DNA from: an uncultured Lentisphaerales bacterium
GTDB lineage: Bacteria > Verrucomicrobiota > Kiritimatiellia > RFP12 > UBA3636
Assembly: GCA_964553035.1 (NCBI GenBank)
Contig: CAZKJH010000003.1
Coordinates: forward strand, 767 to 64,766
Direction of reading: 5' to 3'
Length of the DNA: 64,000 nt
The notes below the pieces were generated by a model. The model had not been told where the DNA came from and did no database searches. It saw only the letters and a list, made by a program, of their open reading frames with translations. Shown here one piece after another: positions 12,273 to 62,331 of this stretch. Positions within the stretch are counted from its first letter, which is position 1. Each line of letters starts with the position of its first letter. The position numbers and the translations under genes are program-made.

Positions 12273-12298
12273 CATGAAAACCTGTTGAATCAAAACGA

Positions 12299-16495: not shown

Positions 16496-16513
16496 GTTTT
16501 TGCCTCCCGTAGA

Positions 16514-20419
<3,906 letters not shown>

Positions 20420-25466: not shown

Positions 25467-25542
<76 letters not shown>

Positions 25543-26910: not shown

Positions 26911-27012
26911 ATGACAAAACGAAAGCTTTATATTACCGAATTTGACAAATCACGCCTTGAAGAACTCATTGCAGTGGCCGAAGAGTTCGGTGGGAAAAAG
27001 AGACCCTCATGA
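26911..27012 (+). CDS. 33-aa upstream ORF translationally coupled (ATGA) to aguA; possible leader peptide or regulator remnant
   Basis: GGAGGAG SD sits 6 nt before the ATG. MTKRKLYITEFDKSRLEELIAVAEEFGGKKRPS. Stop overlaps the aguA start. Confidence 0.35.
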   Translation: MTKRKLYITEFDKSRLEELIAVAEEFGGKKRPS

Positions 27013-32974: not shown

Positions 32975-33279
32975 ATTCACCTCTTTCTTAGCGTGGGAGT
33001 ATAACAAAGCACTTTTGCCAAGCGCAAATCTATTCTCAGGGATGCCAGCTCCGCATCGCCTATGGCTCGCTCCGTGGCAGAGTCGGCACCGTACCACCTG
33101 CTGGCGAGAACAAAGAACGTAGCTTGGTGGGAAGGCAAAAGAGGGAGGAATAACTCGCTTTATAGCGGTGTGTTGGAGGCACTGCCTCTTGGCATTTGCG
33201 TCTGGAGCGAGGCGAAGACGACGCTGAGGTTGCAAGCGCAGCTTGCGCCACGGAGGGGATATCCGCTATAATTGAGCGC

Positions 33280-46003: not shown

Positions 46004-46006
46004 ATT

Positions 46007-48322
46007 TTATCTTTCTTTCGGCAGACCGAGCAGGGACGGCTTTTCCATCCGCACTGCAGCGATCACCGTCTTTGCGTCGAACCGATAACCGGGCCGCTGT
46101 AGCACCACCGCTTGCCCGGACAACAACGTGGCTTCGTAGCAGCCATCCTTCACGCACGCTTCGCCTTCCAGCACCTCGGCGATCTCGCCGCAAAAGGGAT
46201 CGCGCAGCCGCAACGTGTTCGGCATGGTGGCTACGACCTTGACCCAGACCGTCCGGCCCAGATGCCGCACGGCAGAGACTTTCCATGCCCCTTCGGTCAA
46301 CAGATCGCGGAAGGCCAGTTCACGCCAGTGTGCCGGCACGGCGGGAAAGATGCGTACGACATCGCGCCAGCCCTGCACTAACATATCGTTGATCCCGGCG
46401 CATGCGCCGCAGTTCGCCTCATACGTGAACGGCGCCGTCTCGCGCTTGCGTTTCTGGGTCGATCCAAAATAGGAATTGTTGGTTTCGCGCCAATCGGAAT
46501 TGATATGCAATCCGTTGGGCATCACCCAGTGGTCGGCAAACTCCCGGAGGCAATCATGAGCCCATTCGCCCTGCCCCAGCACGGCGGCGAAACTAGCCAT
46601 TTGCGTATACGTCCACCCCCACCAGTTATGTTTGCCCAGTTCCATGTAGTGATCTACGCTCATCTGGATTCGCCGGCGGGTTTCTGCGTCGTCCTCGATT
46701 GTCCAGTCCATGGCCGGATGAATGGCCATCAGATGGCTGGGATGCCGGTGGGATTCGTCCAGTGCCTTTCCGGGCCAGAGGCACAAGGCACCCTGCTCGG
46801 TCAAGGCATACGGTACCAGACGCTCCTTGATGCGCACTGCATCCGGGCTCAAATCGCTCCGCCCCAGAGCCGTTTCCATTTCGACTATCCAGTCGCAACA
46901 GCGCCGGATCAGTGCCAGATCGATGTTGGGGTCTTTGCAGAACGATTCACGAGAAGAAGAGCGGCGATATTCTGGACTGTCCGAGAGCGGCACGTGCAGC
47001 CGACCGTCGGATTCCTCCACCAGATTGGCTCGGAAGAACTTGAAAACTTCGGACACGATGGGATAGCCCGTTCGTGCCAGCCAGTCACGATCCATACTGT
47101 GCCGCCAGCGTAGCCACGGCAGCCAGGCCAGCCAACCCGCGGTAGCCCAGGAAAAACAACCCGAATACCAATTCGAAGAATCACAGAGTTTGAATTTTCC
47201 TGCAAACCCGCCGGGCCAGAACACGCCTTCCGTCCCGAACACTTTTTGAGTATAGGCTTTCGCCGGCTCAGCGCAATCCAGCATGAAATCGCACCAGACA
47301 TCGGCCAAGTCGAGATGCCCCGCAACGTAAGCCGGCCAGAACGTTACCTGGACATTCATATCACAGGTGTAAGCAGCAGTCCAGGGCGGCATGAGCCCAT
47401 CCATAGCCCAAACGCCCTGTAGCCCCGGAGGCATGGCCCCACGCCGGGCCGACGCCGCCAGCAGGTACAGGCCGAAATACCAGAAGAATTCCATCTCCCG
47501 TTCAGGGAGATAAACAGCCGAGACATCCCAGAACTTTTTCCAGGCTCTTTCATGGGTAGCCCGCAGGGAATCAAATCCGCATGTTGCAGCCCAATCCCAG
47601 GTGGCGGTCGCTTTCGCCTCGGCCGCCGCAGCATCGTCTGCACACTCGATGGCCAGATAATGATCCGGCCCCGTGGTATTCCAAACCATGGCCCAAGCGG
47701 GCCCTTCCGGAATCTGTTGAACCCATACGCGTTTATTCCCTCCGGATCGGGTGGTGGGCGGCGGATGTCCCAAAGCCGCCATCGCTTTACACACTTCGGC
47801 CAGTGGGATGAAATCGAGTTCTGCTGATGATGGGTGATCGGATTTCAGGCGCAAGCAAATAATATTTCTTTCACGATGGACAAACGCCGTGAGTGCGATC
47901 TCGCCTTGGTCAGTCCCGATGATGCCGGTCACAAGCGCCCGATCCAGATCCAGACGGCAATCGTAGGCGACAGCGGCTCCAAGGTTGATCGTCGCGCGTC
48001 CAAGGCTGATTTTAGTGGGGGTAGGCGCACCTGTCGGAGTTCCAAAAATGGCCTCGGCGTCCTCATAACGCTTTGCTGCGATCAACTCGCGCAAGTGGGT
48101 ATAGTTGTAGGCCGGATTCTTCCAGTAGCGGTCGTCGGTTCGTGAATCAAATAAATCGGCGCAATCCAGTGTGAGGTTGAGCGGATCCCCGGTGCCCCAT
48201 AGCATTGCGCCCAGAAAACCGTTACCAAGTGGAAAACCGTCTTGCCAGATCCGCGGCGCGGATTGGTGATGTACTCCGTGAATGACGGGATCGCGATTTG
48301 ATGGCCATAAACTGTGTTTCAT
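46007..48322 (-). CDS. Glycoside hydrolase family 95-like (alpha-L-fucosidase family), no signal peptide
   Basis: N-terminus W..FPLGNGFLGAMLWG matches the GH95 N-terminal signature. 771 aa. Confidence 0.65.
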   Translation of the reverse strand: MKHSLWPSNRDPVIHGVHHQSAPRIWQDGFPLGNGFLGAMLWGTGDPLNLTLDCADLFDSRTDDRYWKNPAYNYTHLRELIAAKRYEDAEAIFGTPTGAPTPTKISLGRATINLGAAVAYDCRLDLDRALVTGIIGTDQGEIALTAFVHRERNIICLRLKSDHPSSAELDFIPLAEVCKAMAALGHPPPTTRSGGNKRVWVQQIPEGPAWAMVWNTTGPDHYLAIECADDAAAAEAKATATWDWAATCGFDSLRATHERAWKKFWDVSAVYLPEREMEFFWYFGLYLLAASARRGAMPPGLQGVWAMDGLMPPWTAAYTCDMNVQVTFWPAYVAGHLDLADVWCDFMLDCAEPAKAYTQKVFGTEGVFWPGGFAGKFKLCDSSNWYSGCFSWATAGWLAWLPWLRWRHSMDRDWLARTGYPIVSEVFKFFRANLVEESDGRLHVPLSDSPEYRRSSSRESFCKDPNIDLALIRRCCDWIVEMETALGRSDLSPDAVRIKERLVPYALTEQGALCLWPGKALDESHRHPSHLMAIHPAMDWTIEDDAETRRRIQMSVDHYMELGKHNWWGWTYTQMASFAAVLGQGEWAHDCLREFADHWVMPNGLHINSDWRETNNSYFGSTQKRKRETAPFTYEANCGACAGINDMLVQGWRDVVRIFPAVPAHWRELAFRDLLTEGAWKVSAVRHLGRTVWVKVVATMPNTLRLRDPFCGEIAEVLEGEACVKDGCYEATLLSGQAVVLQRPGYRFDAKTVIAAVRMEKPSLLGLPKER

Positions 48323-48367: not shown

Positions 48368-49771
48368 CTAGTCTTCGGGATTGCTCTGCGCGGCGTTGCC
48401 GATGCTACCTGTGGGACCCAGCAGGGAACTTGCCGCCTGCAAGCCAGCGTTCGTGGACGCGCTGGCTTGGGTGTCCGCGCCCAATTGTTTGCGAATTGTC
48501 GAGGCCATCTGGGCGACGAGTCGTTCAACGTATTCCGAGCTGTTTTCCGCCGCTGGGAAAGGGTCGTTGATCGGAATGTTGTTCTCTTTCATCACTCTGG
48601 AAGCGGCGGCAGTTAGCTCCTTGACCTCCATTGGGCGATTCCCCTCGTGCCATGGAACAGAGCCCGCCCAGATGATCTTTGCCCCTTTTCCTTCATCGCG
48701 AATCAGCTTGACGACCTCGCGTAGACCTGTTTCCCATCCAGAGATGTCCGGCAAAATGGTTTTCCAAATAGGATCGGTTTCGTTGCAGTGTAGCCCGTTG
48801 TTGAACAAGATGATGTCGTAGGAGTATTCATCAAAAATATAGTTCAGATTTTTGACATACAAGGGGTCGGCGAAGCTTCTGCTGGTGCTGTAGGTGGATA
48901 AGTAGGCCGTCCCGGTCAGCGCCTTGTTGACGGAACGCTGGTAATCGTCATAAATGGAATCTCCTATCACCAGCACACGCGGGAGTTCGCTCTTTTCGCC
49001 ATCATACCAGAAGATTCTGGTCCACTCTACTTTTTCCGTGCTTTTATCGTCGCCTGAAACGGCAGGCTGGGCTTGGGAAGCTGGGTCTGTCGATAGCGGA
49101 CTGGAGGCTTTTTTCACGTCAAGATTCGCGCGAATCACGGCGGCCACTTGTTTGGCCGCAAGCTTCCGTCCTTCGACGGAGTGGTGTAAATTATCCGTCC
49201 AGTACTGCTTACGGTCAAGAGGATCCATCAAGGCAAAAAGGTCGTTGATCGGGATGTTGTTTTCTTTCATCACCCCGGCCGCGATAGCATTGAATTCTTT
49301 CACCAGTCTTGTATTGTCCTCAAAAGCTGCCGGAGTAATAGAAGCCCAAATGATGACTGCCCCTTTTTCTTCTTCACGAATCAGTTTTATAACCTCCTTC
49401 AGGGTTGTTTCCCACGCCTTGAAATCGCTGCCGAAGCTGTGCAATCCGTTGTTGAGCTGGATCAGCGCATAGTCGTTTTCAGAAAGCATCAGTTTGAGCT
49501 CTTTAAGGTAAGAGCGGTCAGTCATGCATTTGGCCGTTGTATACGTGCTGACGTAAGCCATTCCGGAAAGCTCTGCGCTGACATACTCCTGATACATGTT
49601 GGCGATGGAATCTCCAATCAGCAGGACGCGAGGGAGATTAGTAGCTCCGGGTTTATGGCAAACCGTGTAGATCCATTCAATGCTTTCGCGTTTGCGTTCC
49701 GCATACAAGGTTGTTGCTATCATGCTGAAACACGAGAACAGAAGAACTCTTTTTAAAGTACGTATTCTCAT
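48368..49771 (-). CDS. Secreted tandem SGNH/GDSL-type hydrolase (two esterase domains; carbohydrate O-acetylesterase-like)
   Basis: Signal peptide. Two GDS blocks VLLIGDSIANMY and VLVIGDSIYDDY, each followed by an NNGLH motif. Confidence 0.7.
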   Translation of the reverse strand: MRIRTLKRVLLFSCFSMIATTLYAERKRESIEWIYTVCHKPGATNLPRVLLIGDSIANMYQEYVSAELSGMAYVSTYTTAKCMTDRSYLKELKLMLSENDYALIQLNNGLHSFGSDFKAWETTLKEVIKLIREEEKGAVIIWASITPAAFEDNTRLVKEFNAIAAGVMKENNIPINDLFALMDPLDRKQYWTDNLHHSVEGRKLAAKQVAAVIRANLDVKKASSPLSTDPASQAQPAVSGDDKSTEKVEWTRIFWYDGEKSELPRVLVIGDSIYDDYQRSVNKALTGTAYLSTYSTSRSFADPLYVKNLNYIFDEYSYDIILFNNGLHCNETDPIWKTILPDISGWETGLREVVKLIRDEGKGAKIIWAGSVPWHEGNRPMEVKELTAAASRVMKENNIPINDPFPAAENSSEYVERLVAQMASTIRKQLGADTQASASTNAGLQAASSLLGPTGSIGNAAQSNPED

Positions 49772-49835: not shown

Positions 49836-51347
49836 TCAGAGGATGCCATCCCACGTGTTAACTTTCTTTTGTTTTATTTCTGCGTCATCGAACCACCGCG
49901 TCGTGACGGCTTTTGTTTCCGTGAAGAACCGGATCCCGTCTTTGCCTAGTGCGTGCAAGTCTCCGAAAAAGGAATCCTTATGGCCGGTGAACGGGAATAT
50001 CCCAGCTGGAACCGGGATTCCAACGTTGATCCCTACCATGCCTCCATGTACGCGTCTTGCAAACTCACGGCTGAAGTACCCATTCTGGGTGAATATCACC
50101 GCGCCGTTAGCAAATTTATTATTATTAATGACTTGCAAACCTTCTTCAAAGTCGCTCACCCGTTTGACACACAATACGGGGCCGAATATTTCTTCATTGC
50201 CAATGGTCATCTTGGGAGTCACATGGTCAAAGATTGTCGGTTTAAGATAAAAGCCATTTTCAAACCCTTTGACACTGACCGTTCTCCCATCCAGAGCAAG
50301 TGTTGCGCCTTCCAGGATCCCTTTTTCGATCCAGTCCAGCACCGACTTCCGGTGGCTTTCCGTAACCAGTGGGCCGAGTTCTGATTTTTTGTCGTATGCA
50401 GGGCCCACTTTGAGCTCCCCTGCGAATTTCTTAAGCAGTTCGACAAGCTGATCTGCGATACTTGACTGGACGACGACAGCCGGTAAAGCCATGCATCGTT
50501 CACCAGCGCATCCGAACGCGGCATTGATAAGCCCGCGCGCCGTGCGTTCGAGGGGAGCGTCTTCCAGTACCAGGGCATGGTTCTTGGCCTCGCACAATGC
50601 CTGTACTCGTTTGCCGTTTGCGGCCGCTGTCGCGTAGATATGCATGCCGACTGCTGTTGAGCCGACAAACGTTATCCCCTTTACATCAGGATGTTTCAGG
50701 AACAGTTCGGCCTCATTGCGGCTACAGGTGACGAGGTTTACCACACCTTCAGGCAAACCCGCTTCCTGCAACAGTTCCGCGCACCGCATCGCGGTCATCG
50801 GGGTTGTACTGGAGGCCTTCAGCACCAGCGTATTGCCGGAGGCAATGCACAGCGGCATCATCCAGCCAAAAGGAATCATAGCAGGGAAGTTGAACGGCGC
50901 AATCCCTGCGAATACACCTACCGCTTCTTTATAAAGCACGGTATCAAAACCTGCGGTGACATTCATCAAGGATTCGCCCATCAACAAGGAAGGAATACCA
51001 CAGGCAAATTCAATCGCCTCCTTGGCCTTGAGGATATCCCCCTTTGCTTCATCCCATACTTTGCCGTTTTCGCGGCACACGATGGTTATAAGTTCGTCCA
51101 GATGATTCTCAATCAATTCTCTGAATCTGAACAAAACCTGTACCCTTTTTATGGCTGGGGTTTCTGACCAGCTTGGGAAAGCGGCTGCAGCAGATTCTAT
51201 GGCCGAGTTGACTTCTTCCTCGGTACAACAAGGCGTCCTGGCTATGATATCCCCCGTATTCGGATCGTAGATGTCCATATACTTGGTGGTTTTCGAGTCA
51301 TGCCATTTGCCTCCTGAAAGATATTTCAGGTATTTTACTTCACTCAT
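49836..51347 (-). CDS. mmsA: CoA-acylating methylmalonate/malonate-semialdehyde dehydrogenase (start at MSEVKY)
   Basis: Colinear with IolA/MmsA (PFNFPAMIPFGW, GERCMA catalytic Cys, KVGP, FTGHKDSFFGDLHALGKDG). No catalytic Glu typical of non-acylating ALDHs was confirmed by eye. Confidence 0.8.
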   Translation of the reverse strand: MSEVKYLKYLSGGKWHDSKTTKYMDIYDPNTGDIIARTPCCTEEEVNSAIESAAAAFPSWSETPAIKRVQVLFRFRELIENHLDELITIVCRENGKVWDEAKGDILKAKEAIEFACGIPSLLMGESLMNVTAGFDTVLYKEAVGVFAGIAPFNFPAMIPFGWMMPLCIASGNTLVLKASSTTPMTAMRCAELLQEAGLPEGVVNLVTCSRNEAELFLKHPDVKGITFVGSTAVGMHIYATAAANGKRVQALCEAKNHALVLEDAPLERTARGLINAAFGCAGERCMALPAVVVQSSIADQLVELLKKFAGELKVGPAYDKKSELGPLVTESHRKSVLDWIEKGILEGATLALDGRTVSVKGFENGFYLKPTIFDHVTPKMTIGNEEIFGPVLCVKRVSDFEEGLQVINNNKFANGAVIFTQNGYFSREFARRVHGGMVGINVGIPVPAGIFPFTGHKDSFFGDLHALGKDGIRFFTETKAVTTRWFDDAEIKQKKVNTWDGIL

Positions 51348-51369
51348 GTCAGTCTCCTTTTCATTTTGA

Positions 51370-52257
51370 TTAAGGGTAAATGGGCGTTCCTTCTTTCTTG
51401 ACTTTTTCAAGGAAGGTTTTTGTTAACTGAGCCGTTATAGGGCCGGGAGTTCCGCTTCCTATCTGCCTTCCATCAACCCAGACGATGGGCACCACTTCAA
51501 TGCGGGTCGCGGTGCAAAAACATTCATCACTGGTATACAAGTCGTGCAGGGTTAACGGTTCTTCTACCGATTCCAGCCCTGCCGCTTTGGCGATCCGCAA
51601 GATCGTCCGTCTCGTGACACCATCCAGAATTCCTAACCAAAGTGGCGGGGTTATGACCCGTGAGCCTTTGACAATAAATAAGTTGTCTCCCGTCAACTCA
51701 CATACAAAGCCTTGTTCGTTTAAAAAAATGGCATCTTGTACATTGACGGCGTTGGCCTGCAATTTGGCTAGGATGTTGTTCAAATAATTGGTCGACTTTA
51801 TCCGTGGACTCAGAACATCCGGCCCATTGCGTCGGCATGAGGTGGAGATGACCTTAATTCCTTTTGTGCTGGAAGCGTTATTGCCTGTATCTTCAGGGTG
51901 GCGGGTTTCGGCATCCACAATGATGACCACAGTCGCAGTCGGACAACTTTTTGGATCAAGCCCCAGAGCCCCCTTACCGCGGCTTGCCACTGGCCGGATG
52001 TAAGCATCTCGCAAGTTATTACGCCTGACGGTCTCAAGGATCGCCACTTTCATCTCGTCACGACTGAGAGGTAGTTTAAGTTGGATCGACTGTGCGGATT
52101 CATAAAAACGATCAACATGCTCATCCAGTGCAAAGATTCGTCCATTATAGGCTTTGATGCCTTCAAAAACCCCATCGCCATAGAGAAAGCCATGGTCAAA
52201 TACGGACACGGTGGCTTCATTCTCGCCCACGAAACGGCCATTTACATATACGATCAT
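51370..52257 (-). CDS. ilvE: Class IV aminotransferase (branched-chain amino acid aminotransferase-like)
   Basis: SVFDHGFLYGDGVFEGIKAY and AYIRPVASRG (BCAT YIRP motif). Colinear with IlvE. Confidence 0.8.
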   Translation of the reverse strand: MIVYVNGRFVGENEATVSVFDHGFLYGDGVFEGIKAYNGRIFALDEHVDRFYESAQSIQLKLPLSRDEMKVAILETVRRNNLRDAYIRPVASRGKGALGLDPKSCPTATVVIIVDAETRHPEDTGNNASSTKGIKVISTSCRRNGPDVLSPRIKSTNYLNNILAKLQANAVNVQDAIFLNEQGFVCELTGDNLFIVKGSRVITPPLWLGILDGVTRRTILRIAKAAGLESVEEPLTLHDLYTSDECFCTATRIEVVPIVWVDGRQIGSGTPGPITAQLTKTFLEKVKKEGTPIYP

Positions 52258-52266
52258 AAAAACTCC

Positions 52267-53988
52267 TTAATAGGACGGTTCGAAATCTGGTTTATACTTT
52301 TCATCTGTTATAACATCAATTAATACAGGTTTGTCGGCCTTCAAGGCTGTCTGAAAGGCACTTTTGAGCTGTTTCGGATCGTCAACTCGAATTCCAAGGC
52401 AGCCGAATTCCTCTGCGATTTTAGCAAAATCTACGTTGCTGAACTGAAAGAGATCACCCTTCTTCCCGGGATAATTACCATACGCCTTTTCCACGCCGAC
52501 AGAACATTGGCTCATGCAAGAATTATTGTTCAACACGGTTATTGTTTTTATACCATTTCGGGCAGCGGTCTCCAGTTCGCAGAGGTGGTAAAAAAATCCA
52601 CCATCTCCTGTGAAACAGAATACCGGTCTGTCAGGCGCTGCGCATTTTGCACCTAAAGAAGCAGGAAATGCCCAACCCAAGGATCCGGCTGCCCGAATAT
52701 ACGTTTGCCCGGAGTAATTTAAATCAACCATTGAGCAGGTCCAAATACTAGCATATCCAGTATCCGCAACCAATATTGCGTTCGGTGGAAGACTCTCTGT
52801 AATCTCCTGACATAACCTCTCCGGTCGTATAGGCGACGCATCCGAAGTCCGAAGGGGTGCCACTTCACGCCGCCATTCCGCAACGACTCCAGCCACATAT
52901 TTCGCCCACTGGGTTTTCTTCTGCTTGGGGCGAATCGATTCCAATAGTTTATTAACCGTTAACAGGGCATCTCCCATGACGCCCTTCATGATGGGAAAGT
53001 TCCTTCCCAGCTCGGATGGATTGATGTCTATCTGTATGATGAGCGTACCCTTTTTCGGTAATTTCCAGTTGTCCGTAACCATGTCTCCGGTATTAGAGCC
53101 GATGAAGAGAACGAGATCGGCTTCTGACACAACTTTGTTAGCTGTTGCCCGGGAATAGGAGCCAACAACCCCCACGCTCAGGGGATGATTGTCTGGGATC
53201 GTTCCTCTGCCGCTCATGGAAGTGGCAACGGGGATGGATAAAAGTTCGGCCATTCTTACTACTGAAGGCCCCGCCGAGGATGCGATCACGCCACCACCCG
53301 CCACAATGACCGGTTTTTTTGCTGCTTCCAACGCGCGGGCCACGACGAGAATTTCTTGGGTGTCCGGGGCAACGCGATGCGCTGGATATTGAGCATAATT
53401 CTCCTCAACGACGACGTCCGAGTTAATTTGAAAACTCTCAGCGATCTGTCCGAGATGCCCTGGAACATCTACATGGACTGGCCCGATTGCTCCGGACGTT
53501 GCCTCGCGAAAAGCTTGACGCAATAAGTAGGGAAGTTGTTCCGCCACATCCACACATACATTGTATTTGGTTACCGCGTCAAAAACGGATTGGTGCGAAA
53601 TCTCTTGATAAGCATTTCGATATTGAGAAAGAGATCTCTTCTTTCCTGTTATGGCAATCACCGATGAATGCCCGAGGAAGGGATCCTGAAGGCCTGATGC
53701 CAAATTGGCCGCCCCCACGGATTGAGCCATACAGATGCCGGGCCTGTGGCTGACACGGGCATAACCATCCGCCATATAGGCGGCCGCCTTTTCAGAGTGA
53801 GCCAATATACGGCGAATACCCAGCTTCTCCATTTCAACCAACGCATGCCTGAGAATAGCTTCAACAAAGAAAACATGCGTGACTCCGTAACTCTGAAATG
53901 TTTGAGCGATGAATGTTGAGCCGGACTGTATGCCGGAAGAACTGGAATCAACGATTTTCTTTGTCTCTTGTTTTTTTTGAATAGCCAT
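52267..53988 (-). CDS. Thiamine-diphosphate-dependent enzyme of the acetolactate synthase / pyruvate oxidase family
   Basis: N-terminal ThDP-pyrimidine domain GVTHVFFVEAIL. Central domain. C-terminal ThDP-binding GDGGF motif (CFTGDGGFFYH). 573 aa. Confidence 0.75.
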   Translation of the reverse strand: MAIQKKQETKKIVDSSSSGIQSGSTFIAQTFQSYGVTHVFFVEAILRHALVEMEKLGIRRILAHSEKAAAYMADGYARVSHRPGICMAQSVGAANLASGLQDPFLGHSSVIAITGKKRSLSQYRNAYQEISHQSVFDAVTKYNVCVDVAEQLPYLLRQAFREATSGAIGPVHVDVPGHLGQIAESFQINSDVVVEENYAQYPAHRVAPDTQEILVVARALEAAKKPVIVAGGGVIASSAGPSVVRMAELLSIPVATSMSGRGTIPDNHPLSVGVVGSYSRATANKVVSEADLVLFIGSNTGDMVTDNWKLPKKGTLIIQIDINPSELGRNFPIMKGVMGDALLTVNKLLESIRPKQKKTQWAKYVAGVVAEWRREVAPLRTSDASPIRPERLCQEITESLPPNAILVADTGYASIWTCSMVDLNYSGQTYIRAAGSLGWAFPASLGAKCAAPDRPVFCFTGDGGFFYHLCELETAARNGIKTITVLNNNSCMSQCSVGVEKAYGNYPGKKGDLFQFSNVDFAKIAEEFGCLGIRVDDPKQLKSAFQTALKADKPVLIDVITDEKYKPDFEPSY

Positions 53989-54058
53989 TTAATCCTGCTC
54001 CTTAAAAGTTAGTAGCTTGTTTTCCAACTTCAATGTTGGACGTTCGATGTTCCGTGTT

Positions 54059-55123
54059 TTAAATAAAGCAAAGGAATCGCGCCGGGTTCTCAACCATGAT
54101 AGTCTTGATCTGCTCTTCCGTGATGCCTCGAGCCAACATTTGCGGCACGATGTTGCTCAAGATATGTGCGTAACCTTGGCCGCCATAACATACAAGTTTT
54201 GACTTCAAGCAGGTGTCCTGTGAAACGAGGATCTGTTTTAAATATCCTGTGTCGATCAGTTCAATAATTTGCTCAATTCGTTCTCTGTCGCATGGCCTGT
54301 TAAACACGCCAAAACGCAGAGGGTAGAACGGGTTGCCGCCAAAAATATCATATTCAACATAGCAACCTGTTTTTGCTATTTCCTGTATTGTGGCCGGCAA
54401 AAAACCTGTTCGATCCATGTGTCCCATGATGACACGACCGATGTCCGCCCCGGCGTCATCGAGAAACCCGATAATGTCGATAGGCGAATTCGCGTGGCGA
54501 CCGGGATGAATGGTAATGGGTGCCCCTGTTTTCTGCTGCGCCCGTGCAGACGCACGAAGCAACTTCTTCTCCGAGTCCTGCAAAGGCCAGGAGCATCCGA
54601 TTTCGCCGATAATGCCCGCCCGGATTTTGGTATGACTGTCACCAACGAGGATTTCTGCAATGATTTCTTCGGCAATCTCGTCTACCGTTTTTTTGTCAAA
54701 TTCCTGCCTTGCTTCTCCGGCCAGAACGTAATAACCTGCTCCGGCAATGATATTGAGGCCTGTTGCTTGAGATATTCGTTTTAATGCTGGAAAGTTAGGG
54801 GATAGACCGGCGGTGGTCACGTCTACAATCGTACCCCCGCCCACATTCTTGAAAAACATCGCCTCCTTGATCGCGACATCTTCATCCAGCAAGCGCACGT
54901 TGTCTAAATTGCTGTACTGGTTGTAGTTAATCCAACTGATATTGTCGATGCTAACCGGTTCGAATGCCCTTTTTTTTAACTCAGCCTCTTGGGGTTCGGA
55001 AAATAATATCTTCGCGTCAACGAGAAGATGTTCATGGGGCAACGTTATTCCAAGCTCATCGGGATGAACTAAGCCCAAAACAGTTTGCGCCTTTTTAATG
55101 GGTTCTTTTGTTGTAGCAGACAT
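54059..55123 (-). CDS. Phosphotriesterase-family (PTE/PHP-like) metal-dependent hydrolase, likely lactonase
   Basis: TLPHEHLLVD His-His metal motif at N-terminus. TIM-barrel amidohydrolase length of 354 aa. Confidence 0.7.
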   Translation of the reverse strand: MSATTKEPIKKAQTVLGLVHPDELGITLPHEHLLVDAKILFSEPQEAELKKRAFEPVSIDNISWINYNQYSNLDNVRLLDEDVAIKEAMFFKNVGGGTIVDVTTAGLSPNFPALKRISQATGLNIIAGAGYYVLAGEARQEFDKKTVDEIAEEIIAEILVGDSHTKIRAGIIGEIGCSWPLQDSEKKLLRASARAQQKTGAPITIHPGRHANSPIDIIGFLDDAGADIGRVIMGHMDRTGFLPATIQEIAKTGCYVEYDIFGGNPFYPLRFGVFNRPCDRERIEQIIELIDTGYLKQILVSQDTCLKSKLVCYGGQGYAHILSNIVPQMLARGITEEQIKTIMVENPARFLCFI

Positions 55124-55195: not shown

Positions 55196-58174
55196 TTATT
55201 GATGTGATACCTTGACGGGGCCGAGCAGTCCTGACGCAATCTTGGCTCCACCCCAAATATTGGCTGGAGTATTCGCGACAGTTATCTCAACATCCAGTTC
55301 ATTTTTCTGGCTGAACTTGGCTATGTCGACACGCCATGGGGCGGCGATTTTGACTCCGGCAGGTTGTCCGCAGATACGGATTTCAGCCGAGTTGCCGGGA
55401 CGACCAAAAGAAAGCGTTAGCGGACAGTTTTGAAATTCTGGAGGCAGGATTATTCTTTTTGAATATGAGGCAGTTCCCGAGTAATAAGGATAGCCATTCC
55501 CGGCCCAGTCTCCAAGTGGGAGTTCAGTCTTGGGACGCGCAAGAGAGTCTCTCTCAATTGCAAAAGCACCGAATATGATCGGGGCATCCCTGTGTCGTGC
55601 ATTATTAAGAATCACGGTGGATTTTTCAATTTTAAGCTCATTCTCTCCTTTGCGGAGAAGTTGTGTGATATCCGCTTCAAGAATCCAGTGGTCAAATGTC
55701 TTCCCAGGAGCAAAACCTTTTATCAATTGACCATTTAGGTAACACGTGAGACGGTCAAAATAATATCCGAAAAACAGTTCGCGGTCTGACATCTCCTCGT
55801 CAATGGCCACTCCTGCAGATTCTGGGATGAAATCGGCGTTGAAGACAAATACGCTCGTCTGCAGATCCCTGTTGAATGTTGTCCGGCAATCCCGGAGCGG
55901 TAGCGCATTGGGCTTGTGTGGGCGGAAATTCCAATCTCCATGGATTTCCATCTCGGATTTGCATGTGCTTCCGGGTTTGTTATTTACGCTTGCAGCAATC
56001 CCTTCTCCTGAGACAAGGACAAGCGATTCAGCCGCGGCAAAATCATGTTTGATCGCGTATTTTCCGTCGGCCGTCTTTTCTCCGGCCTCACCAAGTTCCG
56101 CAGTGTCAAGATCGAGTATGAGCGGCGCATTTTTTCCAGAAAAAGATAGTGAGACTCCCTTGATATCGGATCTGGAAATATTTTGAAGCAGGCAGAAGCT
56201 GAAGCCGTTCTTGATCCACTCCTTGGAGACAATCTTTCCGTTTCCTCCGGAAACCTGGAGCACCCTGGAAGTGTTCGTAAGAAGAAACTCGAGAAGCTTG
56301 TCGGGATTCGCCTTCAGTTCCTCATCCGAGCTGAAACTTATGCTAAGATCACAAGTTTCTCCGTTTGGAACTTGTGAAACCCGGCTGTTTTCCGGATCAA
56401 AAAGATCTTCAGTTTTGGAGTTGAGTGCTGCGATCTTTCCACCGGACTTGCGCCATTTCTGGAGCATGTTGAAAGTTTTCTCCTCAAGGACTTTTGCGCA
56501 AGGCAGGATCAACGCCTTGAAAGATACTTTTTTGCCGTTTGCCGCCTTAATACACAGCGTGCCATTTTCAATGCTCGCCTCCTGTAGATAAGTCTCGTCG
56601 ATTATCTCGTAGGGTATATTGTTTTCGAGCAGGAAATTTCCGGCGGCACGGAATGTCATATCAATCATTCCGCAGACCTCGCCTCGGCCAGCCCGCGTAT
56701 GTTCGGGACCTCCTATGGCGATATGAGCCTCCTGCGAAGAAACGGGGTAGAGCAGGGCTGTCTGGCTTGTCCTTTCTCCGTAGCTGGTCAGATAGCATAA
56801 TTTTGAGATCCAATCAGCCCATTCTTTGTAATGCTCCCATATCGGGCTGTGATAATGATCGGGAAAGCTTTCCCATTTCCGGTGTCCGGCGATGGAATAA
56901 TATATCCCATGCGGAACAAACAAATCCGTTCCAAGCACGGAAAGCAGCCCCGTGGCACGCTTGATTTCCGCCAAATCCAAATTCCATCCGCCGGCGAGGC
57001 CCATGCACTCGCACATGGTCCTTGAGCCTGCGGAGAAATAAGCCGGGCACGATGTTCCCGGTATGGAAATGCTCAGGCAGTCTTTTTGTTTCATCCTGAG
57101 CAAATCATCCATCTCCTCAAGGTTTTCCCTGCCAAGCATGTCAACGCCCGGAAGCCCCTGATTGCGCTTCTGGTCAAAGCGGTCACCCAATTGTCTTATG
57201 TGCTCGGAGGCTCCATCCTCTATGCAATAGTGGCCTGTACTCAATATTCCGTTTTTGCGGCATGAATCGTCAATGGGCCTGATGAACGAATCCCTGTATT
57301 CGTCATTGATGAATCTCCAGAATATAAGTCTGCATATCTTGCTTTGCGGGATGCCGAAAAATACTCCCGGAAGGACATCCTCCAAATGTTTTCCGGTCCT
57401 TTTCTTGAAACGTTCAGGGAAGTCCTTCGACCAGGGAACGCTCCTTCTTGCATATCCGAAACTGGCACATGAATTATCGGTGAATTCCCCTTTGATCACC
57501 GTGCCGAAATATTTCCCGAATTCCTCTGCATACCAGTCATAAGACAAACTGACAAATTTGTGCATGGCCTCTTTGTCAAAATAGTCAGGGTATTTGTCGA
57601 AATGGTCGGGAAACTTGTTGTCCCCAGACGAATCCTCTTTTTGATCGAGGGCGATAATTGTCACCGGTGCGCCACTGGAGTTTTTCCATAGCAACGCTTT
57701 TTTTCCTGCAATCAGAGGCGTGAGGTTTTCAGTCTTGCCATCCTCAGCCACGGCGAAGATGAAGAAAGTAGTTTCGCTGTGCGGAATTTCCACGGATTCT
57801 CCTGCTGACACCTTACGCTCGAAAGATGATTTCAGGCACAGCATGGAACATTCAGGGAAATAGAAGAACAGTTTGCCTCCGGCAGGGCCTGTAGGGTAGT
57901 TGAGCTCGTCGTAAAGCCAGACGCTCAGATTATGCTTGACAGCCTCCTTGATGCAGAAATCAACGGCTTTGCGCCATTCAGGGTCAAGGTATCCGCTTCT
58001 GAGACCGTCGCGGGCATGAAGCATTATGCCACCAAAACCCTTGTCAGCCATATCCGCTATCTGCCTGCCCATTTCATCCTCGAGCAGATAATGGTTCAGA
58101 AACCAGAACGCGACAGGGCGGAATTCATTGGACGGATTTTTCACGCCCTGAATAAAACGCATGTCGGGCATCAT
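55196..58174 (-). CDS. Large (992 aa) cytoplasmic putative glycoside hydrolase, family not assignable by eye
   Basis: No signal peptide. N-terminal TIM-barrel-like block FGGIMLHARDGL...WLYDELNYPTG. Long beta-rich C-terminus. Co-oriented in the glycan locus. Confidence 0.45.
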   Translation of the reverse strand: MMPDMRFIQGVKNPSNEFRPVAFWFLNHYLLEDEMGRQIADMADKGFGGIMLHARDGLRSGYLDPEWRKAVDFCIKEAVKHNLSVWLYDELNYPTGPAGGKLFFYFPECSMLCLKSSFERKVSAGESVEIPHSETTFFIFAVAEDGKTENLTPLIAGKKALLWKNSSGAPVTIIALDQKEDSSGDNKFPDHFDKYPDYFDKEAMHKFVSLSYDWYAEEFGKYFGTVIKGEFTDNSCASFGYARRSVPWSKDFPERFKKRTGKHLEDVLPGVFFGIPQSKICRLIFWRFINDEYRDSFIRPIDDSCRKNGILSTGHYCIEDGASEHIRQLGDRFDQKRNQGLPGVDMLGRENLEEMDDLLRMKQKDCLSISIPGTSCPAYFSAGSRTMCECMGLAGGWNLDLAEIKRATGLLSVLGTDLFVPHGIYYSIAGHRKWESFPDHYHSPIWEHYKEWADWISKLCYLTSYGERTSQTALLYPVSSQEAHIAIGGPEHTRAGRGEVCGMIDMTFRAAGNFLLENNIPYEIIDETYLQEASIENGTLCIKAANGKKVSFKALILPCAKVLEEKTFNMLQKWRKSGGKIAALNSKTEDLFDPENSRVSQVPNGETCDLSISFSSDEELKANPDKLLEFLLTNTSRVLQVSGGNGKIVSKEWIKNGFSFCLLQNISRSDIKGVSLSFSGKNAPLILDLDTAELGEAGEKTADGKYAIKHDFAAAESLVLVSGEGIAASVNNKPGSTCKSEMEIHGDWNFRPHKPNALPLRDCRTTFNRDLQTSVFVFNADFIPESAGVAIDEEMSDRELFFGYYFDRLTCYLNGQLIKGFAPGKTFDHWILEADITQLLRKGENELKIEKSTVILNNARHRDAPIIFGAFAIERDSLARPKTELPLGDWAGNGYPYYSGTASYSKRIILPPEFQNCPLTLSFGRPGNSAEIRICGQPAGVKIAAPWRVDIAKFSQKNELDVEITVANTPANIWGGAKIASGLLGPVKVSHQ

Positions 58175-60673: not shown

Positions 60674-60723
60674 AGTTTTCTTTTTTCGTTCAAATTTCAC
60701 AGGTTTAATCAAAACGTCTCCGT

Positions 60724-62331
60724 TCACCGTATCGTCAGAAGGAGACCCTGGTACACAAACTCATACGCTCCCATGTCCACATTGCCACTGAACTTGTCGA
60801 TCCGTGGATTGCCGTCCAAGTCCAATGCGCCGGCCATCCAGCTCTGACTCAGTCCCGTGTTGAGGCAAGGCGAATTCGGGCGCACATGGTAGTCGCCAAC
60901 AACATGGCTGGCTCCGTAACCACCCCCAGAGGTCAGGAATAGAGGGTTGTTCGTGGTGTTTGCAGAATCCCAGCCGGCTTTTTCCGATCGGACGCAGGAG
61001 TTGGAAAACGTCACGTTCCCCCTCCACTCTGAATAGCTGGCATTGGCCGTTGCATTGTTGGAGTAGACGATGCTGTTGACTACATAAGAGGGCCCCGCAC
61101 CTTCCACCCCAACGCCACCTCCGACATAGGCCTCATTGCCGACGAATGTGCAGTTTACTGCCTGGGCACCATCCGCGAGGGACGCGCCGCCCCCATAGTA
61201 ACCGGAACTGTTGCCGTAGAACAGGCAGTTATAGTAGCTGCCATTGAGACCCCCGCCGCCGCTTCCAATGCCGGTATTAAAGGCCACGATGCAGTTGGTC
61301 ATGGCGCAGTCGCCCACGCCCCCGCCGTAGACAGCACGGTTGCTGGTTACACGACAGTTTAACAAGGTCGATAAGCGCGCCCCTCCACCTTGCCCCGTGA
61401 CCGTATTGAACGCCACAGTGCAGTTGGATAACGTGGTGTAGTTTGCTCCCCCGCCATAAACGGCCGAATTGGAGACCACCGTGCAGTCATACGCTCTGCA
61501 TGGGTTTGCGGCACTCGGGCCACCAAGGCCGCCGCCATCATAACCGGCCGAGTTATTCGAAACCACGCAGCCGTAGAGTGTGCTGCTGAATGCCCCGCCG
61601 CCTGATTCGGCCCTATTGCCAATAAAGTCGCAACGATACAGCTTCGCATTGTACGCGCCCCCACCTTTGGGAGCGTTGGGAGTATTCGCAAAACCGTTGT
61701 TGATGAATTTCGAGTCGTAGAACGTTCCGCCCAAGGCACCGCCACCGCCGTTGCCCGAATAGCCATAACCCATGTTGCCGACAATCACACAGTTGGAAAT
61801 AATGGCCGATGAGTGCGCGTGGATACCGCCGCCGCAACGCGCTTCCGTGCTTTCTCCCGTCACATGCGTCGCGCCGTTGGTGAGCGTGAACCCTATCAAG
61901 CGCGAGCCCGATGCCTGCAAATACACCGGTCGCACAGCCGCCGGTCCATTGGTCGTCACCGGATCCCAGGCACCTTGAATGATGGTGTTGGCTGGATCGT
62001 TATTTTCGCTCCGCAACGTGATCGCCCTGTCGACATGCACGCGATTTGTCAGCCCAACGATTGCGACCCCTCCGGTATCGTAGACTCCAGCACGGACAAT
62101 CACCTCATCGCCTTGAGCCGCCACGGCGGCGTTCACCGCCGATTGGATGTCGGTGGCGGCGTTCGTCCAGGCATTGTAGGGCGACGAAGGCGTAGCATTC
62201 GCCTTGTCCACATAACGGTCGATGCGGGCAGCCCGAGCTGCGGTGAGAGACGTTAGCGCAAGCAGCGCCAGAGACATGAGCCAGAACTTGCGGACTGGCA
62301 ATGTTGATCGACAGGGTCTAAGCGTGTTCAT
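60724..62331 (-). CDS. Secreted right-handed beta-helix repeat protein with conserved ~75-aa C-terminal module
   Basis: Signal peptide FWLMSLALLALTSLTAARA. Gly/Asn-rich beta-helix repeats. C-terminal ...SPCLNTGL...LDLDGNPRIDK...VDMGAYEFVY. Confidence 0.6.
   Translation of the reverse strand: MNTLRPCRSTLPVRKFWLMSLALLALTSLTAARAARIDRYVDKANATPSSPYNAWTNAATDIQSAVNAAVAAQGDEVIVRAGVYDTGGVAIVGLTNRVHVDRAITLRSENNDPANTIIQGAWDPVTTNGPAAVRPVYLQASGSRLIGFTLTNGATHVTGESTEARCGGGIHAHSSAIISNCVIVGNMGYGYSGNGGGGALGGTFYDSKFINNGFANTPNAPKGGGAYNAKLYRCDFIGNRAESGGGAFSSTLYGCVVSNNSAGYDGGGLGGPSAANPCRAYDCTVVSNSAVYGGGANYTTLSNCTVAFNTVTGQGGGARLSTLLNCRVTSNRAVYGGGVGDCAMTNCIVAFNTGIGSGGGGLNGSYYNCLFYGNSSGYYGGGASLADGAQAVNCTFVGNEAYVGGGVGVEGAGPSYVVNSIVYSNNATANASYSEWRGNVTFSNSCVRSEKAGWDSANTTNNPLFLTSGGGYGASHVVGDYHVRPNSPCLNTGLSQSWMAGALDLDGNPRIDKFSGNVDMGAYEFVYQGLLLTIR

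Follow-up and report, generated by a model that had tools for sequence, protein, structure and literature searches.

The arginine transaminase pathway of Pseudomonas consists of the transaminase AruH, the ThDP-dependent 2-ketoarginine decarboxylase AruI and the aldehyde dehydrogenase KauB. Enzymes of the (methyl)malonate-semialdehyde dehydrogenase (MMSDH) family, whose canonical substrates are malonate or methylmalonate semialdehyde, catalyse the last step of beta-alanine catabolism, and valine catabolism begins with a branched-chain aminotransferase (BCAT) and ends with MMSDH. BCATs contain a Y-x-R motif that binds the alpha-carboxylate as well as acidic side chains. Tpa is a class III aminotransferase, as are, to our knowledge, all known beta-alanine and taurine transaminases. 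Animal PTER, a member of the phosphotriesterase (PTE) family, is an N-acetyltaurine and N-acetyl-beta-alanine amidohydrolase, which hydrolyses N-acetyl-beta-alanine faster than N-acetyltaurine and is inactive on N-acetyl-alpha-alanine as well as on N-acetyl-GABA (PMC11374699, PMC13311154). In known bacteria the uptake of N-acetyltaurine relies on an ABC system that comprises two permeases plus two ATPases (PMC4334477).

The locus described here lies on a 64,000-nt stretch of DNA (the window) from an uncultured Lentisphaerales bacterium (GCA_964553035.1, contig CAZKJH010000003.1, 767-64,766 of the forward strand). The genes of the cassette and of its surroundings are as follows.

54059..55123, minus strand: PTER-type binuclear-metal hydrolase of the PTE family, 354 aa (PF02126, 262 bits)
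52267..53988, minus strand: acetolactate-synthase (ALS)-like ThDP enzyme, 573 aa (TPP_enzyme_N/M/C, three of three domains)
51370..52257, minus strand: class IV (BCAT-fold) aminotransferase (AT4), 'ATRxE' subfamily, 295 aa (Aminotran_4 PF01063, 207 bits; PRK08320, 409, cut-off 363)
49836..51347, minus strand: CoA-acylating dehydrogenase of the MMSDH family, 503 aa from ATG (Aldedh; TIGR01722 MMSDH, 566, cut-off 448)
49836-51410, minus strand: the MMSDH open reading frame as listed, starting at TTG
41990..43135, plus strand: NagA-like amidohydrolase, convergent with the gene string, context (Amidohydro_1; TIGR00221 nagA, 139 bits, below the cut-off of 226)
46007..48322, minus strand: GH95 glycoside hydrolase, context (Glyco_hydro_95_cat, 179 bits)
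48368..49771, minus strand: GDSL/SGNH esterase, context (Lipase_GDSL_2 and SGNH matches; the N-terminus resembles a signal peptide)
55196..58174, minus strand: rhamnosidase-like glycoside hydrolase, 992 aa, context (weak NCBIfam matches to BT4145-type alpha-L-rhamnosidase and a jelly-roll domain)
58259..60727, minus strand: DUF4838 protein, context (PF16126, 124 bits)
62433..63524, minus strand: GFO/IDH/MocA oxidoreductase, possibly a sugar dehydrogenase, context (PF01408)

The four co-oriented minus-strand reading frames between 49836 and 55123 are present where the sequence-only reading had placed them, and the profile matches bear out the four families it had named. Its description of a tightly packed set co-oriented with flanking esterases and glycosidases is likewise accurate: the intergenic gaps are 70, 9 and 22 nt, and the flanks are all on the minus strand. 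AGGA-type ribosome-binding sites precede all four genes; that of the MMSDH gene (AAGGAG) lies upstream of the ATG at 51347, which is the likely start. No terminator-like site was found between the four genes, and promoter and terminator counts do not exceed those of shuffled sequence. The esterase gene shares a low-GC stretch with the cassette. No signal peptide is apparent in the 992-aa rhamnosidase-like protein, and the GFO/IDH/MocA enzyme has weak NCBIfam matches to glycoside or UDP-GlcNAc 3-dehydrogenases.

The grouping of the four genes is not due to chance. Among 13 loci with the same aminotransferase subfamily, ten have a ThDP homologue (55-87% identity), eight a PTE homologue (67-86%) and six an MMSDH, as compared to none of 73 loci with ordinary BCATs. 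The orthologues are co-localised elsewhere, in rearranged order. PTE-ThDP-AT4-MMSDH is the order in the window and its Lentisphaerota-type relatives (L007, L171 and a 29-kb contig), MMSDH-AT4-PTE-ThDP that in Verrucomicrobia (L009/L010 and L095), and AT4-PTE-ThDP, with no MMSDH, that of a planctomycete-like contig (L090), where tartronate-semialdehyde reductase and HpcH aldolase genes lie alongside. In each of the eight loci with both genes, ThDP directly follows PTE on its downstream side, and MMSDH is part of the cassette only where PTE is also present. Between the two main lineages the MMSDH copies share only 44% identity, although both score above the TIGR01722 cut-off, and the ThDP copies share 56%; with identities this low, it is a function that was kept, not merely one ancestral operon, which speaks for independent recruitment. 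In loci that have the aminotransferase and the ThDP enzyme (55-87% identical) but not PTE, a D-glutamate-cyclase-like protein takes the place of the latter, with a CN-hydrolase nearby and an oxidoreductase (NAD-epimerase-like in L091/L093, SDR in L096). An alternative ring- or amide-opening enzyme and an aldehyde/keto oxidoreductase at these loci fit a transaminase - decarboxylase - aldehyde oxidoreductase logic. Most ThDP homologues, however, are solitary: those at 64-74% identity are beside TctABC or HAAT ABC transporters, and the other three genes are absent there. A 79% PTE homologue is also solitary, beside TctABC. These solitary copies count against the reading proposed below.

The link to glycan utilisation, proposed earlier from the window, was strengthened by comparison. 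DUF4838 is the catalytic domain of the HexNAc-cleaving families GH163/GH185 (PMC10570127), and L090 and the 29-kb relative contig likewise have DUF4838 genes next to the cassette. In separate lineages the cassette is repeatedly surrounded by DUF4838/GH163-185, PIG-L, GH63-like, BNR sialidase-like (BNR_2) and esterase genes; in PVC bacteria it sits within HexNAc-glycan degradation loci. The substrate is therefore probably released from such glycans, most likely as a by-product or substituent freed during their breakdown; the amino- or keto-sugar acid or lactone suggested by the sequence-only reading is one candidate class.

Our preferred reading, to which we give a probability of roughly 0.4, is a self-contained catabolic cassette that would yield an acyl-CoA from a small, negatively charged amino compound in masked (N-acylated or cyclised) form. 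Firstly, the PTER-type hydrolase would open an amide (or a lactone or lactam) to give a free amino-carboxylate. Secondly, the specialised BCAT-fold aminotransferase would turn this into a 2-oxo acid, with another 2-oxo acid accepting the amino group. Thirdly, the ALS-like ThDP enzyme would remove the carboxylate of the product non-oxidatively and so form a carboxy-aldehyde (semialdehyde), which finally the MMSDH-family enzyme would oxidise, with NAD(P)+ and CoA, to the acyl-CoA. The last three steps would have the net outcome of transamination followed by a 2-oxo-acid dehydrogenase complex, but would need no lipoate. The analysis shows to which families the enzymes belong, that the gene set recurs and is distinct from ilv, and that the pockets are altered and rich in arginine; the order of the steps, the decarboxylase role and the substrate itself are inferred from these.

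The hydrolase appears to be a bacterial orthologue of animal PTER. Its best solved relative is sponge PTER (9efa, 286 bits, 43% identity over 343 residues), with which it shares the Pfam family and identical metal ligands (H30/H32/E174/H206/H235/D303), including the bridging Glu. It is not the PLL-type lactonase that the sequence-only reading had seen here: its nearest characterised relative is an amidohydrolase, and the bridging ligand is Glu instead of carboxylated Lys. Judged by the residue roles described for PTER (PMC12873775), the oxyanion Tyr (Y132), the anion-binding Arg209 and Arg238 and Phe270 (F271 in the hydrolase) are the same. On the other hand, the proposed proton donor His305 is replaced by Cys305, the gate residue Phe34 by Ala37 and Tyr268 by Leu269, next to which Arg270 adds a further arginine to the pocket; moreover, the window protein is bacterial and embedded in an operon. 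We speculate that its substrate could be a larger or different anionic compound than those of PTER, or a lactone. Since PTER is inactive on N-acetyl-alpha-alanine (PMC13311154), an N-acetyl-alpha-amino acid substrate would require an altered specificity. A lactonase role is conceivable by analogy with an SMP-30 lactonase in the same position before an Achromobacter ThDP homologue; the hydrolase matches the phospho-furanose lactonase model only weakly (50 bits). Elsewhere, the neighbours of PTER homologues handle amines and aldehydes (class III/IV aminotransferases, RidA, and either ALDH or tartronate-semialdehyde reductase) or are transporters of small molecules.

The closest solved structures of the aminotransferase are archaeal BCATs (5e25, 320 bits, 52% identity), and it exceeds the ilvE_I cut-off (306 against 246). 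However, when the pockets of 121 subfamily members were compared with those of 74 ordinary BCATs, the subfamily was, at the sequence level, sharply separated. It has a five-residue insertion and E117, R119, H120, L188, A250, R252 and I/V253, where ordinary BCATs have I/W, L/A, Y/M/F, G/C, G, A/G and A, respectively; E117, R119, H120 and R252 occur in 114 to 121 of the 121 sequences and in none of the 74. The Y86-x-R88 motif, the catalytic Lys K154 and the PLP-binding E187 are retained. We take the four new charged or polar residues to line the side-chain pocket, replacing hydrophobic or small ones, although the AlphaFold model has a pLDDT of 65, too low to place the new Arg/His residues in the pocket. 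Because of these replacements the role of valine entry enzyme, suggested earlier, is unlikely.

Both the catalytic Glu (HSE) and GDG...NN are present in the ThDP enzyme, whose sequence lacks the RFDDR motif of AHAS; no IlvN partner is found at the locus. Its best NCBIfam match is PRK06112 (395 bits, below the cut-off of 673), and it stays below the cut-offs of the models for ALS (TIGR00118, 328 against 538), Gcl (268 against 791), AruI (253 against 500) and Xsc (236 against 676); IolD is not among its 25 best NCBIfam matches, and its best PDB matches reach only about 230 bits. By these scores it is not IlvB, Xsc or Gcl. We propose a 2-oxo-acid decarboxylase, but no characterised decarboxylase was matched, and the enzyme may instead act as carboligase, C-C hydrolase or Xsc-like lyase. 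A 52% identical homologue on Achromobacter plasmids directly follows an SMP-30 gluconolactonase gene, with SDR and glucose-1-dehydrogenase genes nearby.

The MMSDH-family enzyme (467 bits with B. subtilis MSDH 1t90) has the catalytic Cys and the preceding Arg in GERCMA, and Asn in EAKNH at the position of the general-base Glu of hydrolytic ALDHs. The window enzyme has Lys aligned to the substrate-binding Arg124, and the KPSE motif is KASS in its lineage; the copies in verrucomicrobial cassettes are canonical. In the linear scheme the semialdehydes used by MMSDH would derive from oxaloacetate-type 2-oxo acids, and for plain aspartate such a scheme has no obvious physiological advantage; both points run against our reading.

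An unlikely alternative is a branched pathway for N-acetyl-beta-alanine as well as N-acetyltaurine. The PTER orthologue would deacetylate both, the aminotransferase would form malonate semialdehyde from beta-alanine and sulfoacetaldehyde from taurine, MMSDH would convert the former to acetyl-CoA, and the ThDP enzyme, a non-orthologous analogue of Xsc, would desulfonate the latter. Animal PTER does cleave both acetyl compounds (PMC11374699, PMC13311154), and the hydrolase retains His206, Arg209 and Arg238, to which the sulfonate of taurine binds. Other PTER homologues pair with omega-type class III aminotransferases and also with ALDH or tartronate-semialdehyde reductase; the HAAT systems beside AT4/ThDP homologues match the two-permease/two-ATPase composition. 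Xsc is also an ALS-like ThDP enzyme, and MMSDH, which closes beta-alanine catabolism, joins the cassette only with PTE. However, the Xsc score of the ThDP enzyme is below its ALS-model scores, and pta, a sulfite exporter and sulfite oxidase were not found nearby. The aminotransferase retains the Y-x-R motif, and the known transaminases for beta-alanine and taurine are class III. Finally, if the ThDP enzyme served only a side branch, one would not expect PTE-ThDP to be the tightest conserved adjacency, nor AT4 to co-occur more with ThDP than with PTE.

Rather improbable, in our view, is an oxidative route in which released HexNAc/HexN is oxidised at C1, e.g. by the GFO/IDH/MocA enzyme, and the PTE-family enzyme acts as aldonolactonase or N-acetyl-aminoaldonate deacetylase. 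The product would be a 2-amino-2-deoxy-aldonic or -aldaric acid, i.e. an alpha-amino acid whose side chain is polar or anionic; the aminotransferase would turn it into a 2-keto sugar acid, which the ThDP enzyme would decarboxylate or cleave. The recurring HexNAc genes (DUF4838 (PMC10570127), PIG-L de-N-acetylase, NagA-like amidohydrolase, a GH123-like protein) and the SMP-30 gluconolactonase of Achromobacter speak for it, as do the HpcH aldolase and tartronate-semialdehyde reductase adjoining the L090 cassette. Of 78 other PTER-like loci, 11 adjoin an enolase-superfamily protein most like acid-sugar dehydratases, nine an SDR and eight RidA; the polar, charged aminotransferase pocket would also suit a polyhydroxy acid. 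On the other hand, we know of no pathway in which glucosaminate is deaminated by transamination, and decarboxylation of a 2-keto-aldonate yields an aldose, not an expected MMSDH substrate. The nearest characterised relative of the hydrolase is an amidase, its lactonase match being weak, and the window GFO enzyme is only faintly sugar-dehydrogenase-like, with no GFO-type gene seen recurring at other cassette loci.

We give very little weight to a shortcut for branched-chain amino acid (valine) catabolism that has nothing to do with the glycan genes, in which BCAT would form 2-oxoisovalerate, the ThDP enzyme would replace BCKDH E1 by acting as keto-acid decarboxylase, MMSDH would acylate the aldehyde or act as final valine-pathway enzyme, and the glycosidases would be adjacent because PVC genomes are rich in CAZymes. 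The ilvE_I score, the pairing of the first and last valine enzymes, and solitary ThDP homologues near Liv-type ABC transporters, acyl-CoA dehydrogenases, MaoC and PrpD-like genes are in its favour, but Glu117, Arg119, His120 and Arg252 of the subfamily would not fit it, the hydrolase is left without a role, and separate lineages have the same glycan gene families around the cassette. Anabolic ilvB and ilvE lying by chance beside two unrelated genes, as automated annotation of relatives ('acetolactate synthase large subunit', 'branched-chain amino acid aminotransferase') might suggest, is hardly credible and was rejected on the ALS score of 328 bits, the absence of ilvN, ilvC and ilvD nearby and the persistence of the association through rearrangement across lineages.

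It is instructive to compare the cassette with known systems; the earlier statement that it matches no textbook pathway holds. Anabolic ilvE-ilvB(N)-ilvC operons have the same two Pfam families adjacent, but score, motifs, partners and context differ (control loci L101, L124): ordinary BCATs 50-55% identical to ours sit in ilvE-(ilvD)-ilvB-ilvN-ilvC operons with IlvB at 809-871 bits on TIGR00118, and the ThDP enzyme and aminotransferase of the cassette do not group with these. The bacterial N-acetyltaurine pathway (the amidohydrolase NaaS, the transporter NaaABB'CC', Tpa or TauXY, Xsc, Pta) has the deacetylation, deamination and ThDP-dependent C-S cleavage of the branched alternative; it differs in that no window protein is an Xsc orthologue by score, pta is lacking, and a class IV aminotransferase stands in place of the class III enzyme Tpa. 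With the MmsA/IolA end step of beta-alanine and myo-inositol catabolism (malonate semialdehyde to acetyl-CoA) the cassette shares membership of the MMSDH family, though the window enzyme has Lys aligned to Arg124, and IolD with IolA is another known ThDP-MMSDH pairing, but iolB/C/E/J are absent and the 25 best NCBIfam matches of the ThDP enzyme include no IolD model. In the cyanobacterial 2-oxoglutarate decarboxylase/succinic semialdehyde dehydrogenase bypass, an ALS-like ThDP enzyme and an aldehyde dehydrogenase likewise replace a 2-oxo-acid dehydrogenase complex, as they may do here, with MMSDH instead of SSADH and in a catabolic setting instead of the TCA cycle. Compared with the Aru pathway, the aminotransferase is class IV and not of the class I fold of AruH, the ThDP enzyme is by score no orthologue of AruI, and the cassette ends in a CoA-acylating MMSDH and has an added upstream hydrolase. 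By analogy, however, the cassette would share with the Aru and Ehrlich pathways the sequence from amino acid to 2-oxo acid, aldehyde and acid, with an ALS-superfamily ThDP decarboxylase at the middle step, i.e. the overall logic of the pathway is already known from other systems.

Between positions 49836 and 55123 of the window lie the four genes that the sequence-only reading had grouped into a catabolic module, and its assignment of the four families to these positions holds, with all of them on the minus strand.

Genes of the cassette
54059-55123, minus strand, hydrolase of the PTE family (PF02126, 262 bits)
52267-53988, minus strand, ThDP enzyme, all three TPP domains found
51370-52257, minus strand, class IV aminotransferase (AT4), passing the PRK08320 and ilvE_I cut-offs
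49836-51410, minus strand, CoA-acylating methylmalonate-semialdehyde dehydrogenase (MMSDH; TIGR01722, 566 against 448 bits)

The true start of the MMSDH gene is probably the ATG at 51347, and the intergenic gaps are 70, 9 and 22 nt. Each of the four genes is preceded by an AGGA-type ribosome-binding site. No terminator-like site was detected between them in a scan whose promoter and terminator counts over the window equal the shuffled expectation. A riboswitch or regulatory RNA that could give a clue to the ligand was not found in the window with Rfam, the only matches being three tRNA genes (4226-4296, plus strand; 23764-23836 and 25470-25542, minus strand). Co-orientation extends over 43166-63524, where the other genes encode a 945-aa unknown protein, a GH95 enzyme, a GDSL esterase, a 992-aa rhamnosidase-like protein, a DUF4838 protein, a 573-aa unknown protein and a GFO/IDH/MocA oxidoreductase.

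GC content is 0.47-0.50 between 48000 and 58000 and 0.55-0.60 on either side. Six genes fall in the low-GC stretch, namely those for the GDSL esterase, for the four cassette enzymes and for the 992-aa rhamnosidase-like protein, and their acquisition may have been joint. A signal peptide is carried by the DUF4838 protein and by the GDSL esterase; an obvious one is absent from the GH95, 945-aa and 992-aa proteins and the GFO oxidoreductase (43166-48322, 55196-58174 and 62433-63524), so that glycan breakdown is probably partly cytoplasmic. Elsewhere in the window an agmatine deiminase-like (PAD_porph) gene adjoins a CN-hydrolase gene (27009-28915), an arrangement like that of the AguA/AguB putrescine route. 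Three minus-strand ORFs of very large size (1153, 1398 and 1301 aa) occupy 8701-20419 and 29048-33235, and a 1395-aa protein combines transglutaminase-like and DUF3857 domains.

Orthologues of the four genes are also co-localised in other genomes, in rearranged orders, and altogether the cassette was found in three gene orders.

Gene order and neighbours of the cassette in other loci
L007, 86-87% relative of the window: PIG-L, PTE, ThDP, AT4, MMSDH
29-kb contig and L171, lineage as window and L007: PTE, ThDP, AT4, ALDH; near two DUF4838, BNR_2, GH63-like and PIG-L genes
L009 and L010, two Verrucomicrobia MAGs: MMSDH, AT4, PTE, ThDP; near GH4, two esterases, PIG-L and two GH63-like genes
L095, metagenome contig: order as in L009 and L010
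L090, contig with planctomycete-type neighbours: AT4, PTE, ThDP; near DUF4838, GntR, HpcH aldolase, a weakly BNR-like protein and a tartronate-semialdehyde reductase (417 bits, above cut-off)

As to the lineage label, the 90% cluster of the hydrolase includes one member with the name Lentisphaerota. The PTE gene is directly upstream of the ThDP gene in 8 of the 8 loci that have both. The aldehyde dehydrogenase of L009/L010 is an MMSDH too (637 bits), and it shares only 44% identity with its window counterpart. Between the ThDP enzyme of the window and the cassette copies of L010 (11072-12736) and L090 (11076-12749) identity is only 56%, and these two copies share 75% with each other. The cassette has thus kept, or recruited, distinct members of the same families. 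The ThDP enzyme of the window stands closer to stand-alone homologues of other phyla (64-74%) than to the cassette copies, which suggests that one paralogue was replaced by another within a conserved cassette. Small unknown ORFs adjoining the cassette in different loci show no mutual homology.

A metagenome scan with the cassette aminotransferase as query yielded 7 loci with identities of 73-86% and a further 73 that do not exceed 59%, none falling in between, and these 73 contain no PTE at 60% identity or above, no ThDP enzyme above 35% and no MMSDH. The set of four genes is likewise absent at 78 PTE loci of other phyla (mostly Chloroflexota, identity up to 55% save one at 60%). The stand-alone ThDP homologues adjoin TctABC or Liv-type ABC transporters, SDRs and acyl-CoA dehydrogenases, and one 79% PTE homologue adjoins TctABC. 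The combination is therefore specific, although its partners also occur singly, and a modular catabolic unit would be expected to behave in this way. The cassette is real and non-random; a limited literature search found no published description of it, and a plasmid collection contained no member of its aminotransferase subfamily (here called ATRxE).

Subfamily members in loci without PTE keep their link to a ThDP enzyme from this family (identity 59-62%). A second cassette type is seen in L091 (69-6034) and L093 (4360-9836), in the order IclR, ThDP, D-glutamate-cyclase-like protein (PF14336), ATRxE aminotransferase, NAD-epimerase-like reductase, CN-hydrolase and HAAT ABC transporter; in L091 an isochorismatase and a molybdenum hydroxylase follow. 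In L096 the order is AT4, SDR, class III aminotransferase, ThDP. Transaminase, ThDP enzyme and an aldehyde or keto oxidoreductase thus recur together, and in these loci the amine would be supplied by a ring- or amide-opening enzyme.

In the surroundings of the cassette in the Lentisphaerota-type, Verrucomicrobial and planctomycete-like loci one repeatedly meets DUF4838 proteins, PIG-L de-N-acetylases, GH63-like and BNR sialidase-like proteins and esterases, whereas the AT4-ThDP pairs of other lineages have ABC transporters instead. GH163, an endo-GlcNAc-ase active on complex N-glycans, and GH185, a 6-sulfo-GlcNAc-ase, have DUF4838 as their catalytic domain (PMC10570127). In view of this recurrence we read the cassette as a portable small-molecule unit that PVC bacteria would have coupled to the degradation of HexNAc-rich glycans.

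For the chemistry we prefer a linear scheme of four steps, to which we assign a probability of about 0.4. An anionic N-acyl or cyclic amino compound would be hydrolysed, the product transaminated to a 2-oxo acid, this decarboxylated by the ThDP enzyme to a semialdehyde, and the semialdehyde oxidised in a CoA-acylating reaction.

The hydrolase, which exceeds the curated PF02126 cut-off by far (262.5 against 22.4 bits), has as its closest solved structure the sponge phosphotriesterase-related protein (PTER) 9efa (286 bits, 43% identity). Its metal ligands H30, H32, E174, H206, H235 and D303, invariant in 118 homologues, align with His27, His29, Glu174, His206, His235 and Asp303 of sponge PTER. 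PLLs and PTE bridge their metals by a carboxylated Lys. The earlier label of a PTE-like lactonase (PLL) therefore has to be given up, since the bridging residue is Glu174, the protein resembles PTER, and the OPH (69 against 500 bits) and phospho-furanose lactonase (50 against 630) models fall far below their cut-offs. The PTER contact residues retained, with roles taken from PMC12873775, are Y132 (the oxyanion Tyr, PTER Tyr131), R209, R238 and F271 (PTER Phe270); those altered are Tyr268 (Leu269, beside which stands Arg270), His305 (Cys305) and Phe34 (Ala37). Arg209 and Arg238 of PTER bind the sulfonate (PMC12873775). By these alignments the protein is a PTER orthologue with a predicted Arg-rich pocket.

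PTER hydrolyses N-acetyltaurine and, faster, N-acetyl-beta-alanine, and does not hydrolyse N-acetyl-alpha-alanine or N-acetyl-GABA (PMC11374699, PMC13311154). These substrates bring to mind a branched pathway for N-acetyl-beta-alanine as well as N-acetyltaurine, where MMSDH and an Xsc-like ThDP enzyme would handle the two aldehydes; the ThDP enzyme is not Xsc itself (236 against 676 bits on TIGR03457), and we consider this pathway unlikely.

Over 78 other PTER-like loci the neighbours include MFS transporters (16 loci), enolase-superfamily proteins most like acid-sugar dehydratases (11), SDRs (9), TRAP transporters and RidA (8 each), and class III and class IV aminotransferases (5 each). A Rhizobium plasmid has the order class III aminotransferase, ALDH, PTER-like gene, and a Roseovarius plasmid has RidA, SBP, PTER-like gene, D-2-hydroxyacid dehydrogenase, MFS and tartronate-semialdehyde reductase. 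The presence of aminotransferases and semialdehyde enzymes beside PTER-like genes speaks for an amidase releasing an amine. The dehydratase and SDR pairing leaves room for a lactonase role, as does an operon on the Achromobacter insolitus plasmid NZ_CP026974.1 (5290-12524) with TauD/TfdA dioxygenase, GntR, TctC, SMP-30 lactonase, a ThDP homologue (52%), TctC and SDR; this annotated operon of a cultured organism offers a practical way to look for the substrate on which the ThDP clade acts. An oxidative route for amino-sugar acids, in which the PTE protein acts as lactonase or deacetylase, would agree with these latter neighbours, and we judge it rather improbable. In three Chloroflexota loci (L022, L033 and L058) class IV aminotransferases without the BCAT Y-x-R motif adjoin the PTER-like gene; these may be amine or omega-amino-acid transaminases cooperating with the hydrolase.

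The aminotransferase passes TIGR01122 (306 over 246) and PRK08320 (409 over 363) and is 52% identical to Geoglobus BCAT 5e25, among its nearest solved relatives. We set 121 members of its subfamily (identity 72-100%) against 74 ordinary BCATs. Both groups share Y26, F31, the Y86-I-R88 motif (Y86-x-R88), the catalytic Lys K154, Y158, the PLP-binding Glu E187, T251 and E254. Fixed or nearly so in the 121, and absent from the 74, are Glu117 (I/W/L in ordinary BCATs), Arg119 (L/A/I), His120 (Y/M/F), a five-residue insertion after position 123, Leu188 (G/C/A), Ala250 (Gly), Arg252 (Ala/Gly) and Ile/Val253 (Ala). The BCAT G-T-A-A-E loop binds the substrate alpha-carboxylate via backbone NH groups, and a W/Y-containing loop lines the side-chain pocket. 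The window protein does not match the G-T-A-A-E loop, the E-G/C-x-G motif or the hydrophobic pocket loop, and reads A-T-R-I-E, E-L-T-G and A-E-T-R-H-P-E-D there. Two added Arg residues, a His and a Glu in those loops point to a substrate that is anionic or strongly polar, and away from Val, Leu or Ile. A shortcut in branched-chain amino acid breakdown, for which the BCAT scores and MMSDH would speak, is consequently very unlikely. The AlphaFold model (mean pLDDT 65, below 50 in active-site segments, with a shallow alignment of close homologues) is too poor for placing Arg252 and Arg119.

The ThDP enzyme has its best NCBIfam match in PRK06112, below the cut-off (395 against 673 bits). It carries the catalytic Glu and GDG...NN motifs, and the AHAS RFDDR motif is absent. 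It is not the biosynthetic acetolactate synthase IlvB (TIGR00118, 328 against 538), Gcl (268 against 791) or AruI (253 against 500), and AlsS, pyruvate oxidase and IolD are far below their cut-offs or outside the best 25 matches. Gcl is without the canonical catalytic Glu, which is present here in an HSE motif. The nearest solved structures reach only about 230 bits, and the best PDB match, "BbmA", could not be traced in the literature. The window and all cassette loci are free of ilvN and other ilv genes. The two ordinary BCAT loci inspected, L101 and L124, do have them and are genuine ilvE-(ilvD)-ilvB-ilvN-ilvC operons with IlvB proteins at 809-871 bits on TIGR00118. Scores, motifs, missing ilvN/C/D and control operons thus separate the ThDP-aminotransferase pair from anabolic IlvB/IlvE, and an anabolic role is ruled out for practical purposes.

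The window MMSDH (566 bits) and the L010 copy both exceed the TIGR01722 cut-off of 448.5. It has the catalytic Cys (GERCMA, Arg before Cys) and Asn in place of the general-base Glu (EAKNH). We take Arg124 and Arg301 of B. subtilis MSDH to be the residues that hold the substrate carboxylate; the equivalent of Arg301 is present, and at the position of Arg124 the window lineage has Lys and L009/L010 have Arg. The window lineage also has KASS instead of KPSE, where the Verrucomicrobial copies are canonical. A SauS-type role was rejected, SauS being described as an acylating enzyme of the succinic-semialdehyde-dehydrogenase type with no mention of the MMSDH family.

The Arg-rich pockets predicted for hydrolase and aminotransferase are consistent with acidic or sulfonated amino acids, beta-amino acids or amino-sugar acids as candidate substrates. 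We speculate further, as a tentative and somewhat doubtful proposal, that the cassette encodes an undescribed PVC pathway for an amino-acid-like product of HexNAc glycans, with new PTER, transaminase and ThDP specificities. The substrate could for example be an aldonic or aldaric acid of the 2-amino-2-deoxy type, or else a substituent that is an N-acetylated acidic or beta-amino acid. The bacterial PTER would then act as deacetylase or lactonase, Arg and His residues would adapt the BCAT fold to a side chain that is anionic or polar, and an acetolactate synthase-like 2-oxo-acid decarboxylase would feed MMSDH.

The cassette would give a physiological context and testable substrates to three large orphan groups: the PTER orthologues of bacteria (the animal protein was de-orphanised as late as 2024); a class IV aminotransferase subfamily with sharp limits that is everywhere annotated IlvE; and a widespread "acetolactate synthase-like" ThDP clade annotated ALS. 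Automated ilvB and ilvE calls in these genomes are misleading, and the breakdown of HexNAc-rich glycans of host or algal type by Lentisphaerota, Verrucomicrobiota and Planctomycetota may include a downstream step that has gone unrecognised. The re-tooled BCAT-fold transaminase might also be of interest for biocatalysis.

In terms of general design, the cassette shares a known logic, i.e. transaminase, ThDP-dependent decarboxylase and aldehyde dehydrogenase, and it would build a variant of this logic from three orphan subfamilies.
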